NCBI GenBank assembly: GCA_964454175.1 | Contig: CAYVSA010000040.1 | Span: 1 to 18,546 of the forward strand | Reading direction: 5' to 3' | Source of the DNA: an uncultured Pseudomonadota bacterium | GTDB taxonomy: Bacteria; BMS3Abin14 | Length of the DNA stretch: 18,546 nucleotides | Part shown: positions 638-16,135 of the stretch, in pieces | Layout: every line of letters begins with the position of its first letter | How positions within the stretch are numbered: the stretch's first letter is position 1 | Notes under the pieces: generated by a model | Told to the model about the DNA's origin: nothing | The model's input: the letters and a program-made list of their open reading frames with translations, nothing else | Databases searched by the model: none | Made by a program: the position numbers and the translations under genes

Positions 638-985
638 CTAATACTGTCTCTTCTCCCTGATACGTGCTTTTCTGCCTTTGAGCTCCCTGAGATAATAAAG
701 CTTGCTCCTTCGGATGCGGCCAAGCCTGGTCACCTCGATCTTGTCCACCTTCGGAGAGTGGAGCGGGAACACTCTCTCGATGCCAACACCGGCAGTAACT
801 TTCCTGACGGTGATTGAAGATCTTAAACTAGCTCTTCTCCTGGCAATGACGACACCCTCATAGATCTGCACTCTCTCCTTGTCGCCCTCAGTGATCTTGT
901 AATAGACTTTCACTGTGGCGCCGATGGGGGTGTCGGGGATGTCTCGTTTCATGTGCTCCTTCTCATACATCTCTAGTATGTTCAT
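638..985 (-). CDS. rplS: 50S ribosomal protein L19
   Basis: 115 aa with motifs ERVQIYEGVVI, TVRKVTAGVGIERVFPLHSP and RRSKLYYLR; follows trmD. Confidence 0.98.
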   Translation of the reverse strand: MNILEMYEKEHMKRDIPDTPIGATVKVYYKITEGDKERVQIYEGVVIARRRASLRSSITVRKVTAGVGIERVFPLHSPKVDKIEVTRLGRIRRSKLYYLRELKGRKARIREKRQY

Positions 986-1016
986 TGTGCTAAACCCTTT
1001 CCTGGGTGTACTTATG

Positions 1017-1138
1017 CGGCTTCAATAAGGGACCATCTGCTTCGTTATCGGCCCTTGGAAATCCTCGAAGTATGTCCCATATACGTCTCCGGTTTCCTCT
1101 GACCTGCTGCCTCGTATCTGAACCCTTCTTGCGAGCCT
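1017..1138 (-). repeat. Diverged single copy of a ~120-bp structured palindromic repeat in the rplS leader
   Basis: Aligns end to end with 2852-2971 (~70% identity by manual alignment). Shared blocks are CGGCT, CATCTrCTTCGTTATCG, AATCCTC, TCCGGTT, CCTGCTGCCTCGTATCT and CGAGCC. Confidence 0.9.
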
Positions 1139-1177
1139 ATAGTTAAAAAACTCAGAACACCAGCTATTGGCTGCAGT

Positions 1178-1205
1178 ATTATAATTATATTTCGATGTAT
1201 GGCAA
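1178..1205 (-). promoter_or_regulatory. Putative sigma70 promoter for rplS-rnhB
   Basis: Minus strand reads TTGCCA-N16-TATAAT in the AT-rich trmD-rplS spacer. Confidence 0.6.
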
Positions 1206-1223
1206 GTCATTTCCCAAAAATAA

Positions 1224-1964
1224 TTATTTTTCTGGTTCGGGCGCGTATCCCAGCGTTGCGAGATACTGGAGATCCTCTTCACTGAGGTCTGCCTTATCAA
1301 GGAGGTCAGGCCGCTTCTCGAAGGTTCTTTCCAGGGAGCGGTCCCTCCTCCAGCGGTCGATCACGGCATGGTTCCCGGAAGTCAGTACTTCCGGCACAGC
1401 CATATCCCTGAAGTTCTCGGGTCTTGTGAACTGGGGGTACTCGAGCAGCCCGTCTGAAAAACTCTCGTCTTCGCAGGACCTCTCGTCTCCCAGGACACCC
1501 GGTATAAGTCTGGACACTGCATCAATGATCACCAGTGCAGCGTACTCCCCACCGGAGATGATGAAGTCTCCTATGGAGACCTCCCGGACGTCCAGACCTT
1601 TGATGATCCGTTCGTCGACTCCCTCGTACCTTCCGCAGACCAGGACGACCTCCTCGAATGAAGCAAGCTCCTTTGCCATGTCGTGGTTGAAAACCTCACC
1701 CTGGGGGCTGAGGAGGATGACAGGAGTTCCGGAAGCCGTTTCAAGGGATTCAGCGGCAGCAAACAGCGGCTCGGGCTTCATGACCATTCCGGGACCGCCG
1801 CCATATGGGTAATCGTCAACTGTTCTGTGTTTGTCTCTGGCAAAATTTCTGATATCTACGATGTTTGTCTGGATAATTCCCCTGTCCAGGGCCTTTCCCA
1901 GCAAACTGTGTTTCAGTGAATCTGAGAGTATTTCCGGGAAAATAGTCAGAACGTGATATTTCAT
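1224..1964 (-). CDS. trmD: tRNA (guanine37-N1)-methyltransferase
   Basis: Motifs VDDYPYGGGPGMVM, LSPQG, CGRYEGVDER, SIGDFIISGGE and LLEYPQFTRP; downstream of rimM. Confidence 0.98.
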   Translation of the reverse strand: MKYHVLTIFPEILSDSLKHSLLGKALDRGIIQTNIVDIRNFARDKHRTVDDYPYGGGPGMVMKPEPLFAAAESLETASGTPVILLSPQGEVFNHDMAKELASFEEVVLVCGRYEGVDERIIKGLDVREVSIGDFIISGGEYAALVIIDAVSRLIPGVLGDERSCEDESFSDGLLEYPQFTRPENFRDMAVPEVLTSGNHAVIDRWRRDRSLERTFEKRPDLLDKADLSEEDLQYLATLGYAPEPEK

Positions 1965-1965
1965 A

Positions 1966-2475
1966 TTAGAGATCCAGGAGCCCCGGCAGATCGAGAAGGT
2001 TCAGTATCCCCCGTTCAAGGTCAACCTCTCCCACAGCATCCGGAGAAAAAGGAATAAGAAATTCTCCCCTATCGCCCCTGCACACGAGGACAGGCGATCC
2101 GCCCGTGTCCATTATCTCCTCGATCATTCCGAGAGGGGTGCCTTCGTGGTCGAATACAGAAAGGCCCACCAGATCGTGCAGGAAGTACTCTCCTTCCTTT
2201 AGCGGTGCCAGCTCATTCACGGGAAGGCACACCTCGACATTCCTCAGCTTTTCTGCGTTCTCAACGTCGTCAACACCTTCTATCTTCATGAATGGTGTTT
2301 CCCTGTACAGCCTCGTTCTCTCAACTTTAACCGGCCTGCTGCCCCTGAGTCCCAGAAAAACCCTCTTAGCGCCCATGAGCGTTTCCAGATGATCTGTTTC
2401 CGGGCGAAGGCGCACCTCGCCCTTCAGTCCATGAGGCCGCAGGATCACAGCTATTATGAATAGGTCTTGTGGCAT
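1966..2475 (-). CDS. rimM: 16S rRNA processing protein RimM
   Basis: Motifs RPHGLKGEV, EGEYFLHDLVGL and FLIPF (PRC barrel); lies between rpsP and trmD. ATG at 2475 chosen; an upstream TTG at 2499 is an alternative start. Confidence 0.95.
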   Translation of the reverse strand: MPQDLFIIAVILRPHGLKGEVRLRPETDHLETLMGAKRVFLGLRGSRPVKVERTRLYRETPFMKIEGVDDVENAEKLRNVEVCLPVNELAPLKEGEYFLHDLVGLSVFDHEGTPLGMIEEIMDTGGSPVLVCRGDRGEFLIPFSPDAVGEVDLERGILNLLDLPGLLDL

Positions 2476-2549
2476 GATTTCTTGCCTGGCCTGAGGCAAA
2501 TCTCTTACTGGAAGGGCCGGATGGGGTCGGAGTTCGGTCCGGGGCGGTA

Positions 2550-2831
2550 TCAGGCGCTGACTGATGCCGTATTTTCCTCGTGAAATTTCTTCATCAGACC
2601 GATCTTGGAAAGAAGGCTCCTCACCGTGTCAGATGGCTTGGCGCCCTTCCTCAGCCACTCGAGGATTTTTTCTTCCTCGAGATTGATCTCGACCGGGTCC
2701 TTTTTGGGGTCGTATGTGCCGACGAGTTCAATAAAGCGCCCGTCTCGCGGGAACTTGGAGTCGGCTACTACTACACGGTAGAAAGGCTGCTTTTTTTTGC
2801 CCATTCGTCTTAATCTTATTACTGTCGCCAA
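2550..2831 (-). CDS. rpsP: 30S ribosomal protein S16
   Basis: Motif [31 protein letters not shown]. Start moved to the TTG at 2831, which has AGGAGG (2845-2840) 8 nt upstream; the track start at 2861 lies inside the repeat. Confidence 0.97.
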
Positions 2832-2851
2832 ACTCTCTTCCTCCTGGTATT

Positions 2852-3156
2852 CGGCTGCCACAGCACAGCATCTACTTCGTTATCGACCTTCGGCAATCCT
2901 CAGTGTATTAAATATACGCTTCCGGTTGCCTCAGGCCTGCTGCCTCGTATCTACTGCACTCTGTCGAGCCGTTTTCCATTAATTGCGGCTGCCACAGCAC
3001 AGCATCTACTTCGTTATCGACCTTCGGCAATCCTCAGTGTATTAAATATACGCTTCCGGTTGCCTCAGGCCTGCTGCCTCGTATCTACTGCACTCTGTCG
3101 AGCCGTTTTCCATTAATTGCGGCTGCCACAGCACAGCATCTACTTCGTTATCGACC
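2852..3156 (-). repeat. Tandem array: two full and one truncated identical 134-bp units (120-bp palindromic element plus 14-bp linker)
   Basis: Units start at 2852, 2986 and 3120. Each element is bounded by CGGCT...AGCCG and has a central hairpin GGCAATC-CTC-AGTGTAT-TAAAT-ATACGCT-TCC-GGTTGCC. Linker is TTTTCCATTAATTG. Confidence 0.97.
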
Positions 3157-3190
3157 GTCCTTAATTGTTATGTCTCTCAAATATTCCGGG

Positions 3191-3218
3191 ACAACCTTCA
3201 ACTTTCAACATTAAACTG
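3191..3218. repeat. Degenerate 7-bp tandem array (ACAACCT TCAACTT TCAACAT TAAACTG)
   Basis: Read directly; same family as 4709-4736 (inverted) and 4764-4777. Confidence 0.65.
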
Positions 3219-3234
3219 TTTAGATGAACACGCT

Positions 3235-3263
3235 TTACTACACTTTTATCTCTTTTTCGTCAA
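3235..3263 (-). promoter_or_regulatory. Possible sigma70 promoter for rpsP-rimM-trmD
   Basis: Minus strand reads TTGACG-N17-TAGTAA in an AT-rich region; the -10 box is imperfect. Confidence 0.4.
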
Positions 3264-3292
3264 ATATTTAAATCAGTTGTTCTATTTTATCA

Positions 3293-3321
3293 CCTGGAAC
3301 CTGGAACTTGGAACCTGGAAC
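3293..3321. repeat. 7-bp tandem repeat (CYTGGAA)x4 just downstream of the ffh stop
   Basis: CCTGGAA CCTGGAA CTTGGAA CCTGGAA C, read directly. Confidence 0.85.
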
Positions 3322-3324
3322 TCG

Positions 3325-4647
3325 TTAAAAGGGTAACCGTCCAAGGGGCCCCTTCCCTTTTCCCATTCTCTTCATCATCTTTTTAGTTTCGGCGAACCGT
3401 TTGAGGAGGCGGTTTACCTCAGTCACTGTAGTTCCCGAGCCGCCTGATATCCTCTTCCTCCTGCTGCCGTTAATGATCTTTGGATTTCTTCTTTCGGCCG
3501 GGGTCATGCTGTCTATTATGGCTGTGATGCGAACCAGCTCATTTTCGTCCAGCTGGGAGGGCATGGCCTTCTTCATCTTGCCGGGCAAAGGTATCATGGA
3601 CATCATTTCCTGCAGGGAGCCCATATTCCTCAACTTTGAGAGCTGGTCCCGGAAGTCTTCCAGGTCGAATTCACCGCGGACCTGCTTCCTGAGTGTTTTT
3701 TCAGCTTCCTTTTCATCAAGTGTTTTCTGTGCCCGGTCGATCAGTGTGAGGACATCGCCCATGCCCAGGATCCTGGAGGCCATCCGTTCCGGGTGGAACG
3801 GCTCCAGACCATCATAACTTTCGCCGGTCCCCGCAAACTTGATGGGGACCCCAGTTACTTTTCGCATGGAGAGGGCTGCCCCTCCCCTTGCATCGCCGTC
3901 AAGCTTGGTAAGTATTATGCCAGTCAGTACCAGCTTTTCATGGAACACTTCGGCTACTTTGACGGCATCCTGACCGGTCATGGCATCAGCCACGAGGAGG
4001 GTTTCGTGAGGATGAATGATGCCGGAGAGTCGCTGCACCTCTTCCATAAGATCGTCATCTACGTGGAGCCTTCCGGCCGTGTCTATTATGACCGTGTCAG
4101 CTCCTGATCTGCCGGCTTCAACCGCAGCTTCGCGATACACACCCTCGGGTACAGTTCCCTGCTGAGGGACAAACGCCGGGACTCCCGCGCTTCCTGCTGC
4201 CTGGATGAGTTGATCAACTGCCGCGGGCCTGCTCATGTCCGCAGGAATAAGGTAGGGTCTCTGGCCCTGTTCTTTCAAATAGAGGGCGAGCTTAACAGCT
4301 GTGGTAGTTTTTCCGGAGCCCTGGAGCCCGACAAGCATTATGCGGGTTGGCGGTACCGACGCCCGGTCCAGAGAGACCCTTGCCCCACCGAGGATCTCCC
4401 CCATTTCTTCGCGGACTATTTTAATGACCTGCTGTGCTGGAGTGAGGCTTTCCAGCACTTCACTGCCGGATGACCGCTCCCTTATCTGTGCAACAAAGTC
4501 CTTCACGACTTTGAAGTTGACATCGGCTTCCAAAAGGGCTAGCCTGACCTCCCTGAGGGTGGAGTCGAGGTCTTTTTCGGTTAACCGCCCTCTATTTTTG
4601 AGTCTTTTGAAGATGGTTTCGAGTTTGTCGGACAGATCCTGAAACAT
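3325..4647 (-). CDS. ffh: Signal recognition particle protein Ffh (SRP54)
   Basis: Motifs [16 protein letters not shown] (P-loop), [19 protein letters not shown] and M-domain IIDSMT..ER..P..I..SR..RI..GSG. Start set at MFQDL (4647); ATGs at 4653 and 4671 are alternatives. Confidence 0.98.
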
Positions 4648-14408: not shown

Positions 14409-16135
14409 GATTTGAAGACATCCTTCAATTCTTCAAACGGACCGGTTCCGACCCTGGCCCGGAGGAGGAGCCCAAAGGGAAAAAGGGCCAAACGAGGATC
14501 CTCTATCAGTTCCTCCTCGTAACACTGGCCGTGTCTGTTATGCCTTTACTTGCTGCGTCCTACAAGCTGCTGGAGATCAACAAGGTCTTCCTGGAAGATG
14601 AGCTCCTTGCCCTGCACTCCCAGGTCGCAGATGCGACTGCCGGAGAAATATCCTCAACAATGACAAACATCCTTGGCAACCTCGAGTTGGTCGCCAAGGC
14701 GCAGAGCGGCACGAGCCCCCTCAGCAGGGAGGCGAGGAATCGATCCCTCATCTTCTACCTTGACCAATACCCCGAGATAAGCCGTCTCACCCAGCTCAGC
14801 AGCGGGAACAAGGCCCTGGCGAGAGTTTTCAGGGTTGGTCAGTCAGAATCCCCCGACCTCGATGAATCGTTAAAATTAAAAGCTGTCAAGGAGGCTTCCG
14901 CCGGCAAGACGTATATCAGCGACCCATTTGTAATAAGCGGCAGTACGGTTCCAGCGATAGCCGTGGGAATGCCCATATATGAGAGTGATGGATCAATTAG
15001 GTCAATTCTCCTTGGAGAGATCTCCCTTAAGAGGGTCCAGGAAACGATCCAGAGAATTAACATCCGGCGGCAGGGCAACGCTTATGTTGTAGATCGAAGG
15101 GGCAGCCTGATAGCTCATCAGGTAGAAGATCGGGTGGCCAAGTCAGAGGACATGAGTTCAGTTGAGATCGTTGGAAAATACCTGCTAGCAGGGGTCAGCG
15201 CCGGTACAATTCCATTCAGAGATAAAATGGGCAATGACATGGTTGGCTCCTATTCAACCGTTAAAGGCCTGGGCTGGGGTGTAGTAGTGCAGGAGCCGAG
15301 ATCAGACGCCTACGAGATCATCAGAAAGATGAACATCCAGACCGTTCTGTGGGCCCTGGTTGCTGTTGTCGCGGCGGTGATCGCCAGTACGCTGCTCGCT
15401 ATACGCCTCGCCAAGCCGATAGGTATTCTGGCCGATAAAGCCATGTCCCTTGCCCAGGGTGATTTTCACCAGAGAGTGGAAGTTAATACCAGGAATGAGC
15501 TCGGCCAACTGGCTGTAACATTCAACCATATGGCGTCCCGTATCGAGGTGCACGACAGAAACATGAGAGAACTGTTCATCAACACCACCAAATCTTTAGC
15601 AGCGGCTATCGATGCAAAAGACCCCTACACCAGAGGGCACTCTCAGCGGGTTGCACAGATAAGTCTGGAGATATCGAGGGAACTGGGGCAATCTCCAGCC
15701 GAGCAGCAGAAGGTGAATATTTCGGCTCTGCTCCACGATGTCGGCAAGATCGGTATCGAGGATGGTATCCTGAGAAAGCCCACCGAACTCTCCGATGAAG
15801 AGTACAACACTATAAGACAGCATCCCCTGTGGGGTTCAATGATAATGGGTCACATCAAACAGCTCAGGGAGGTAATACCAGGTATAGAATCCCATCATGA
15901 ACGGATCGATGGTACGGGGTATCCCAAAAAACTGAAGGGAAGCCAGATACCGATCCTTGCCAGGATCATTGCTGTTGCTGACACCTTCGACGCTATGACA
16001 ACAGACCGCCTCTACCAGAAAGCCATGGAGCCCCAGTTCGTTATCAGCAAGCTTGTCGAATGGAAGGGGACACGATACGATTCAGATGTCGTGGACGCCA
16101 TGATAAGGATCTATCCGAGGATCGCCGGTGGGTGA
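14405..16135 (+). CDS. Membrane-bound Cache-HAMP-HD-GYP cyclic dinucleotide phosphodiesterase
   Basis: TM1, then a dCache-like periplasmic region (YISDPF, AYVVDRRGSLIAH, GWGVVVQEP), TM2, HAMP (GDFHQRV...NELGQLAVTFNHMA) and an intact HD-GYP domain (YTRGHSQRV, LHDVGKIGI, HHERIDGTGYP, VADTFDAMT). Confidence 0.9.
   Translation: MRFEDILQFFKRTGSDPGPEEEPKGKKGQTRILYQFLLVTLAVSVMPLLAASYKLLEINKVFLEDELLALHSQVADATAGEISSTMTNILGNLELVAKAQSGTSPLSREARNRSLIFYLDQYPEISRLTQLSSGNKALARVFRVGQSESPDLDESLKLKAVKEASAGKTYISDPFVISGSTVPAIAVGMPIYESDGSIRSILLGEISLKRVQETIQRINIRRQGNAYVVDRRGSLIAHQVEDRVAKSEDMSSVEIVGKYLLAGVSAGTIPFRDKMGNDMVGSYSTVKGLGWGVVVQEPRSDAYEIIRKMNIQTVLWALVAVVAAVIASTLLAIRLAKPIGILADKAMSLAQGDFHQRVEVNTRNELGQLAVTFNHMASRIEVHDRNMRELFINTTKSLAAAIDAKDPYTRGHSQRVAQISLEISRELGQSPAEQQKVNISALLHDVGKIGIEDGILRKPTELSDEEYNTIRQHPLWGSMIMGHIKQLREVIPGIESHHERIDGTGYPKKLKGSQIPILARIIAVADTFDAMTTDRLYQKAMEPQFVISKLVEWKGTRYDSDVVDAMIRIYPRIAGG

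Follow-up and report, generated by a model that had tools for sequence, protein, structure and literature searches.

Two ribosomal protein genes, rplS (L19) and rpsP (S16), carry copies of one structured element of about 125 nt in their 5' untranslated regions (UTRs) in the stretch of DNA analyzed here, an 18,546-nt contig (CAYVSA010000040.1, assembly GCA_964454175.1; hereafter the window) of an uncultured bacterium of the candidate phylum BMS3Abin14. With a probability that we put at about 0.8, the finding is real, the fold is well supported, and the element is a member of a mobile family of the miniature inverted-repeat transposable element (MITE) type with an unusually conserved, strand-specific structured core, not a regulatory leader of rplS and rpsP. 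The elements of the window would be immobilised copies of a small dispersed mobile repeat. Its core folds on a single strand into a long hairpin of four helices, with invariant purine-rich blocks in the loops and two internal loops of tandem G·A. The Nitrospirota form of this core lies between terminal inverted repeats (TIRs) of about 27 bp as a 183-nt MITE, and the same TIRs are borne by insertion sequences (ISs) encoding a DDE transposase. In the phylum of the window, most copies, including those of the window, are TIR-less and sharp-ended, and they often stand in head-to-tail arrays.

A first-pass annotation of the window, made from its letters alone, had described two same-strand copies of about 70% identity. 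It had considered both a shared regulatory leader of the two genes and a dispersed repeat similar to MITEs or repetitive extragenic palindromes (REPs), the latter being called at least as likely. The similarity was reproduced (89 of 126 positions identical between the rplS and rpsP copies, 71%). The 2.17-Mb genome of the window was searched by iterated nhmmer, and a covariance model, R1, was built from 10 copies. The nhmmer search yielded 16 matches, 11 full-length and 5 partial, and 11 matches of at least 100 bits were obtained with R1. Non-ribosomal genes flank 13 of the 16 matches; the flanking genes include aminotransferase/asd, panE, POR/carboxyltransferase, rodA, methylmalonyl-CoA mutase, cysS/SpoU, proA/nadD, lolA/radical-SAM, ispH/rpsA, maf and purU. 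The copy between ispH and rpsA is partial as far as it can be read, its 5' part bordering on a stretch of N (G000:C15, from about position 15611; L025; G000 denotes the genome of the window). Relative to co-directional neighbours, six copies are sense and six antisense, as judged from crude open reading frame (ORF) calls. No transposase was found among the genes neighbouring the copies of this genome.

The search of related genomes with R1 revealed the element in 15 of the 15 genomes of the same family and in 3 of the 45 other sampled families. All 16 genomes of the phylum contain it, with 1–41 matches each; in the collection searched, this phylum is represented by only 16 species genomes, all of one family. 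In the genome with 41 copies (G014), the units are located mostly in head-to-tail arrays of two to four diverged units. Since such diverged arrays are common in the relatives, the array of the window is typical. It was also observed that many of the 660 contigs of G014 start or stop within 100–320 nt of an element or array, and the family is apparently a main cause of its assembly breaks. Some sites are occupied in more than one genus. In both genomes of one genus (G004 and G011; L034 and L042), the only copy of the element is situated between a TusA-domain gene and selD. A selB-like gene (N-terminus ..GHIIIGTAGHIDHGKT) is immediately preceded by copies or arrays in G010, G007 and G014 (L051, L036 and L219, respectively), three genomes that represent two genera.

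The trmD region of 14 operon-bearing relatives was scored with R1 with the filters off. Copies at the leaders in question were found only in three genomes of the nearest genus, namely before rpsP in G012 and before rplS in G006 and G015, and 10 of the 14 relatives have no copy at either leader. Before rpsP, G006 retains only a 5'-deleted remnant and G015 has a heptamer-repeat hairpin instead; in other genera, these leaders contain different repeats or are short. Between this genome and G006, the rplS copies differ in subtype and are 73% identical, in the manner of paralogues. The family has been mobile on an evolutionary time scale. In a synteny test of 35 copies from relatives, five were located at sites also filled in this genome (all in the nearest genus), 16 at syntenic sites that are empty here, and 14 could not be placed. 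By the criterion that the first-pass annotation had set beforehand, namely many copies in mixed orientation and context, the role of a ribosomal protein leader is rejected. The dispersed-repeat alternative was borne out by the 16 matches in unrelated contexts and both orientations, by the copy numbers in the phylum and by the TIRs with matching ISs in Nitrospirota that are described below. The location of the copies in the rpsP and rplS 5' UTRs is attributed by us to the tolerance of promoter-distal leaders to insertions, as the same leaders of relatives hold other junk repeats; autoregulation by S16 or L19 is not the reason for it. We infer that both copies of the window are transcribed in the folding orientation within mRNAs. 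Any effect in these leaders would be that of a generic cis-acting RNA structure, i.e., on 5'-end stability, processing or protein binding.

A degenerate pattern with 21 specified bases, for which about five chance matches were expected by estimate, was scanned against one genome per species and matched at least 119 stretches. Among the matches listed, 66 of 80 titles bear Nitrospir- names, and the remaining ones belong to unclassified "bacterium", "Proteobacteria", "Bdellovibrionota", Peregrinibacteria and Polyangiaceae metagenome-assembled genomes (MAGs). R1 confirmed 79 of the 80 loci, with 82 matches (L106, which overlaps L105, was left out). In the Nitrospirota sample, 36 of 121 genomes were positive at E ≤ 1e-8. 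The similarity of the Nitrospirota copies was found to extend for about 27 nt into each flank as TIRs, (C)TAGGAGCCTGTCCGACATTGCC...GGTCAATGTCGGACAGGCTCCTA(G), and then to stop. The 5' TIR is present in 58 of the 82 copies, the 3' TIR in 54 and both in 50, and the unit length is exactly 183 nt in 41 of these 50. The sequences flanking the 50 copies with both TIRs read CTA in 25 and TAG or TAA in 34 cases, the usual form of the ends being CTA...TAG/TAA; a duplication of TA or YTAR is indistinguishable here from the TIR termini without empty sites.

In five genomes, the TIR motif occurred 12–66 times per genome, as compared with 2–8 times for the reversed control, and mostly in pairs about 187 bp apart. 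Three wider pairs were examined: two are full ISs of 1.37 and 1.62 kb, and the third encloses an unrelated gene for an AAA-domain ATPase. Both ISs encode transposases with the domains DDE_Tnp_1 and DDE_Tnp_1_6, with or without DUF772, a set that we take to indicate IS1182/IS5-like elements. Cognate autonomous ISs with the same TIRs are represented by L199, L200 and L203. Homologous transposases (45–57% identity) are encoded by 4 of the 16 genomes of this candidate phylum, among them the two with the most copies, and one transposase element of the phylum has CTAGGAGTCTGTCGGA-type ends. In the genome of the window, four copies bear degenerate TIR-like arms: C26, C44, C13c and C3 (3' side only). 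The copies of the window and most copies of the phylum, termed type A, have sharp ends, AAGGC...GCCGCATAA, followed by an ACCCCAAAA/AT-rich tail. The core is kept where TIRs have been lost, for example behind dnaJ in L112 and L084, as compared with L080, and in all type A copies.

The pairing-preserving changes described in the first-pass annotation are visible in the alignment (GGCAA/TTGCC versus GGAAA/TTTCC, GGCCT/AGGTC versus GGTC/GGCC, and AGTGCAG/CTGTGCT versus AAGGG/CCCTT). The purine-rich blocks, also noted there, were nearly invariant over 10, 46 and 82 aligned copies. In 45 distinct sequences, 92.2% of the cells of the modelled pairs can pair, against 75.1% in shuffles, and none of 500 shuffles reached 92.2%; these figures overstate the significance, as they come from related sequences in an alignment fitted to the model. 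Changes on both sides were found in 26 of 30 pairs, and pairing did not exceed 47% when the partner was slid by one to three columns. The apical stem has been swapped wholesale with pairing kept (GTATA/TATAC, GTACG..., CCCGCC/GGCGGG). On the modelled strand, which is the minus strand of the window, G·T greatly exceeds A·C (125:19 and 264:33). In a palindrome that decays neutrally, the two should be about equally frequent; one strand is therefore under selection. The pairing statistics and the one-strand G·T excess support the proposal of the first-pass annotation that the stems and loops are shaped by selection on a single-strand fold. The ratio was 121:18 in copies that are sense to both neighbours and 41:8 in antisense copies; the excess is the same in both and is therefore not imposed by read-through transcription from host genes. 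Two tandem G·A motifs are nearly invariant: CAGAUNC opposite GYAGAUG, with 5'-GA/3'-AG in the middle, and CC-G-GA-GR opposite YC-GA-GG. The folding energy of single sequences was unremarkable (z of -0.7 and -1.6).

The orientation of the copies relative to genes was found to differ between lineages. The copies sampled from the phylum of the window comprise 21 sense and 7 antisense ones, a count in which kin and some orthologous sites recur, and units of this phylum often end 4–27 nt before a sense start codon (17 of 29 distances to a downstream gene on the same strand do not exceed 27 nt). The complete 4.32-Mb Nitrospirota genome G124 has 40 matches, of which 15 are antisense and only 6 sense to co-directional neighbours. 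In 28 of 38 cases there, the element is followed on its 3' side by a gene of the other strand, so read-through transcripts would mostly carry the complement. Replichores were defined by dnaA with assumed termini, and for the genome of the window by contig GC skew, in which gene strand is a confounder (r = 0.86). Of the 40 matches of G124, 29 have their folding strand on the lagging-strand sequence (21 of 32 loci when clusters are merged), as do 7 of 8 loci of G010 and 10 of 14 sites of this genome. This is suggestive of a replication-linked orientation bias common to the two phyla, with few loci and assumed termini. Constraint on the copies in place is hinted at by the similarity of the rpsP copies of this genome and G012 (see below) and by the cores kept after deletion of a TIR; hints to the contrary are signs of decay, namely the remnant in G006, the missing copy in G015 and the five half copies in this genome.

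Several results weigh against the assignment to a MITE family, or at least against its being the whole account. TIRs are absent from the copies of the window and from most copies of the phylum, and a search for a homologous IS1182-like transposase in this genome gave no matches. Of the two full ISs, L199 contains the R1 core at no more than 10 bits, and no match was found in L200 up to E = 1. The core is thus not simply IS-end DNA. How TIR-less, sharp-ended units have multiplied into 10–40 copies and into arrays is not explained by the MITE reading. The rpsP copies of this genome and G012 are identical at 108 of 124 positions (87%), although the four-fold sites of trmD are saturated (25–28 of 86–87 identical), which points either to purifying selection on this copy or to a common source of later date. 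The overstatement of the pairing figures, given above, counts on the same side. In addition, the conservation of the loops across two phyla exceeds the needs of a passive MITE, and the strongly conserved one-strand fold is not accounted for by the assignment to a MITE family.

Two readings that address this fold are compatible with membership in a MITE family. In the first of them, the core is a functional structured RNA module of a new class of non-coding RNA (ncRNA), a conserved cellular protein binds its G·A loops and purine blocks, and MITE shells and tandem duplication only spread it; the UTR copies, including those of rpsP and rplS, may be under common control, or the arrays may act as protein sponges. 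This is a possibility that we regard as tentative. It is favoured by the strand-specific covariation with loops invariant across two phyla, the survival of the core after TIR loss, the 87% identity of the orthologous rpsP copy and the frequent position of units shortly before sense start codons, and a long multi-helix hairpin with conserved internal loops would be typical of RNA. The excess of antisense copies and of opposite 3'-side genes in G124 argues against it, as do the G·T excess being the same in antisense copies, the absence of a common promoter upstream of the copies by inspection, the patchy occurrence of L7Ae-family proteins (see below), and the decay of one orthologous copy and the loss of another. 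Alternatively, the fold may matter as single-stranded DNA (ssDNA), serving the element's own mobilisation or processes linked to replication, by analogy with REP/RAYT hairpins, IS200/IS605 ends and integron attC sites; we consider this rather unlikely. In DNA, too, tandem sheared G·A pairs are stable, the strand asymmetry does not depend on the direction in which the neighbours are transcribed, the folding strand prefers the lagging-strand sequence, and head-to-tail arrays recall site-specific or rolling-circle-like amplification. Yet the only transposase linked to the element is a DDE enzyme, which acts on double-stranded TIRs, and no Y1/HUH transposase was found in this genome, in G014 with its 41 copies or in four others of the 16 genomes of the phylum, nor TnpB in any of the 16. 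Moreover, the favoured strand is the template of the leading strand and not the exposed template of the lagging strand, the replication statistics are based on assumed termini and few independent loci, and R boxes of the attC kind are not visible in the sequence. More generally, the core may be a structured module, either RNA with two protein-binding tandem-G·A loops or strand-specific ssDNA, that was spread between phyla (Nitrospirota, this candidate phylum and a few others) in MITE shells and is kept TIR-less in UTRs and arrays for a function to the host or to itself; here too we see the odds as clearly below even. Such a function may be, for example, that of a shared element of post-transcriptional control or processing, or of a protein sponge.

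Two further readings leave the core with a narrower role or none. Genomic copies could be young and neutral and the fold a frozen property of a few master copies on which nothing acts at the genomic sites, the perfect 134-nt tandem before rpsP being perhaps an assembly artefact. The stems differ mainly between subfamilies, copies decay, and the tandem is 100% identical in a MAG assembled from short reads. We judge this reading unlikely: the master lineages must themselves have evolved under a pairing constraint on one strand, 12 of the 16 genomes of the phylum have no transposase yet contain intact copies, and arrays with diverged units recur in several genomes. An autoregulatory leader, to which S16 and/or L19 would bind as to an rRNA mimic and so repress their own operon, is highly improbable. 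Both copies do lie in 5' UTRs in the folding orientation and near ribosome-binding sites, and the rpsP copy is kept in this genome and G012; against this stand the prevalence of non-ribosomal contexts, the absence of copies at both leaders in most relatives, the different subtypes of the rplS copies and the absence of a match to any Rfam family of ribosomal protein leaders.

In the Rfam scan, which the first-pass annotation had named as a check of novelty, no model matched the whole window at the gathering score or positions 900–3400 at E ≤ 10. Five further loci (Nitrospirota MITEs, G014 arrays and one IS) gave nothing relevant at E ≤ 1. No match was found in phage and plasmid collections, and the degenerate pattern had 0 matches in viral contigs. 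The element is not described in the literature searched, which covered Nitrospira intergenic repeats, MITEs and RNA motifs, IS1182 MITEs and covariation in bacterial MITEs, with ISfinder and Dfam-like libraries outside its scope; PMC12542641 and PMC12306157 do not concern the element.

A number of other identities were tried and rejected. Derivation from the RNA of the signal recognition particle had been suspected from common purine words, and neither a convincing alignment to the 4.5S RNA of this genome (ffs, G000:C9:29428-29525) nor a match of RF00169 on the element was obtained. As for protein partners, the Y1/RAYT domain PF01797 is found in 10 of the 16 genomes of the phylum and is absent from this genome, G014, G015, G006, G008 and G013, and PF07282, searched for as a TnpB/omega-RNA partner, is found in none of the 16. 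A partner of the L7Ae family (PF01248), whose proteins are the obvious candidates for binding G·A motifs, is not universal: it was found in 9 of the phylum's 16 genomes and in none of 5 Nitrospira genomes. In this genome, an L7Ae-family domain is encoded by an ORF of about 200 aa at G000:C4:22958-23221 (L230); it occurs in 9 of the 16 genomes of the phylum versus 4 of the 45 other sampled families. No conserved ORF was seen in the aligned units, which speaks against a small toxic peptide or a type I toxin–antitoxin system. No common -35/-10 sequence of an outward or own promoter was detected upstream of or inside the units by inspection, with no formal test, and the R''/R' boxes of attC sites were not visible by eye.

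A comparison with known systems indicated that the element is a repeat family like MITEs and the enterobacterial repetitive intergenic consensus (ERIC), also called the intergenic repeat unit (IRU). ERIC/IRU sequences are likewise imperfect palindromes of about 125–130 nt in intergenic, mostly transcribed DNA, in either orientation, with copy numbers that vary widely between genomes, sequences conserved across genera and an unclear function. No sequence relation was detected, no comparison to the ERIC consensus being made, and the element differs in its TIR-bearing form with a matching IS, its occurrence in two phyla, its head-to-tail arrays and its invariant internal loops. MITEs derived from IS5/IS1182, for example Correia/NEMIS-like ones, are also non-coding, shorter than 200 bp, present in tens of copies and provided with TIRs common to transposase-bearing ISs. 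The Nitrospirota element resembles them in its TIRs of about 27 bp and in its ends at TA-containing sites next to stop codons. It is unlike them in that its interior is not derived from the IS, its covarying strand-specific core is conserved between phyla, and most copies of the window's phylum lack TIRs.

REPs, including bacterial interspersed mosaic elements (BIMEs) and the REPIN-RAYT system, share with the element the dispersed extragenic hairpins, the structure kept by compensatory change and possible effects of orientation. They are 20–40 nt long and depend on Y1 (RAYT), whereas the element is a single four-helix hairpin of about 125 nt, and six of the 16 genomes, among them that of the window, yielded no Y1_Tnp. 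The BOX elements of Streptococcus pneumoniae are likewise modular small UTR repeats with tandem internal modules and predicted RNA structure; in sequence, module structure and taxa they are unrelated. Ribosomal protein leaders (L19_leader of Rfam and others) are structured as well and lie between the promoter and the ribosome-binding site of rplS or rpsP, but they are operon-specific and conserved in position. The element is neither, and no Rfam model matches it. Like a K-turn, the element has tandem sheared G·A pairs beside a Watson–Crick stem with a bulge (CC-G-GA-GR opposite YC-GA-GG); the bulge is of one nucleotide, not three, and L7Ae-family proteins are not consistently present. The CAGAUNC/GYAGAUG motif is a symmetric tandem mismatch and not a K-turn.

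In the window, as the first-pass annotation had stated, each of the two copies lies between a predicted promoter and the start codon (Table 1), and the hairpin of the rpsP copy ends at 2852, 6 nt ahead of the Shine–Dalgarno sequence. The rplS copy, of the TIR-less type A form, is a hairpin with four helices. At the rpsP site, units follow one another head to tail in an array, which the first-pass annotation had not spelt out. The N-terminus of the rpsP product aligns with that of the relatives. The rplS promoter is alignable behind trmD in 13 of 13 genomes compared, and the TTGACG box before rpsP was found in 12 of 12 genomes aligned by eye; a simple consensus scan did not call the rpsP promoter.

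Table 1. Genes, predicted promoters and repeats of the rpsP–rplS region (coordinates of the 18,546-nt window).
Feature	Position	Strand	Remarks
ffh	4671-3325	minus	
Heptamer array, GTTCCAG-type x4.3	3292..3321	minus	between ffh stop codon and rpsP promoter; second repeat family accompanying the element
rpsP promoter (predicted), TTGACG-17-TAGTAA	3235..3263	minus	upstream of array; sequence read by eye
Third array unit, 5'-truncated	3118..3185	minus	3' half only (model positions 58-126); promoter-proximal array end
Copy 2b, second array unit	2984..3106	minus	119 bits; identical to copy 2a
Copy 2a, rpsP-nearest unit	2850..2972 (hairpin 2852-2972)	minus	covariance-model match 2846-2976, 123 bits
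Tandem repeat before rpsP	2852..3156		period 134 nt, x2.3, 100% identical; number of units as assembled from short reads
rpsP (S16), coding sequence	2550..2831	minus	TTG start 2829-2831; Shine-Dalgarno AGGAGG 2840-2845
rimM	2499-1966	minus	
trmD	1964-1224	minus	
rplS promoter (predicted), TTGCCA-16-TATAAT	1178..1205	minus	11/12 consensus matches; about 35 nt upstream of copy 1
Copy 1, rplS 5' UTR	hairpin 1018..1137	minus	covariance-model match 1011-1143, 126 bits (model R1)
rplS (L19), coding sequence	638..985	minus	

Inside the ffh-rpsP-rimM-trmD-rplS cluster, rplS and rpsP each have their own predicted promoter, and both promoters are conserved throughout the phylum. Both the length and the content of the leaders downstream of them vary greatly, and these leaders serve as sinks in which small repeats collect. 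Besides the heptamer array listed in the table, a GTTGAAA-type heptamer remnant is located at positions 3192-3209. Tandem arrays of 7 nt were observed 20–110 nt upstream of many copies of the element (in the window and in the flanks of L017-L060). In relatives, such arrays fill the rpsP and rplS leaders as well, in some cases as the two complementary arms of a hairpin (G012, G015). The heptamers found elsewhere are GTCCAGR, GGAGACG, GAAACGG, GCACGCA, ATTAGAG and TACTGAC.

The idea that two ribosomal protein genes have one covarying leader in common, attractive as it is, has been removed as a false positive, and covariation by itself is not proof of an operon-specific regulator. In Nitrospira, the key nitrite oxidisers, and in a candidate phylum of which little is known, a widespread and apparently undescribed repeat family has been defined. 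Assemblies break at its copies, and it can mislead screens for ncRNAs. As the interior of a MITE the core is unusual: its fold is under selection on one strand whatever its context, its loops do not vary across phyla, and it outlasts the loss of TIRs. If an RNA or a binding protein were found, the family would exemplify the spread of a structured RNA module by bacterial transposable elements.

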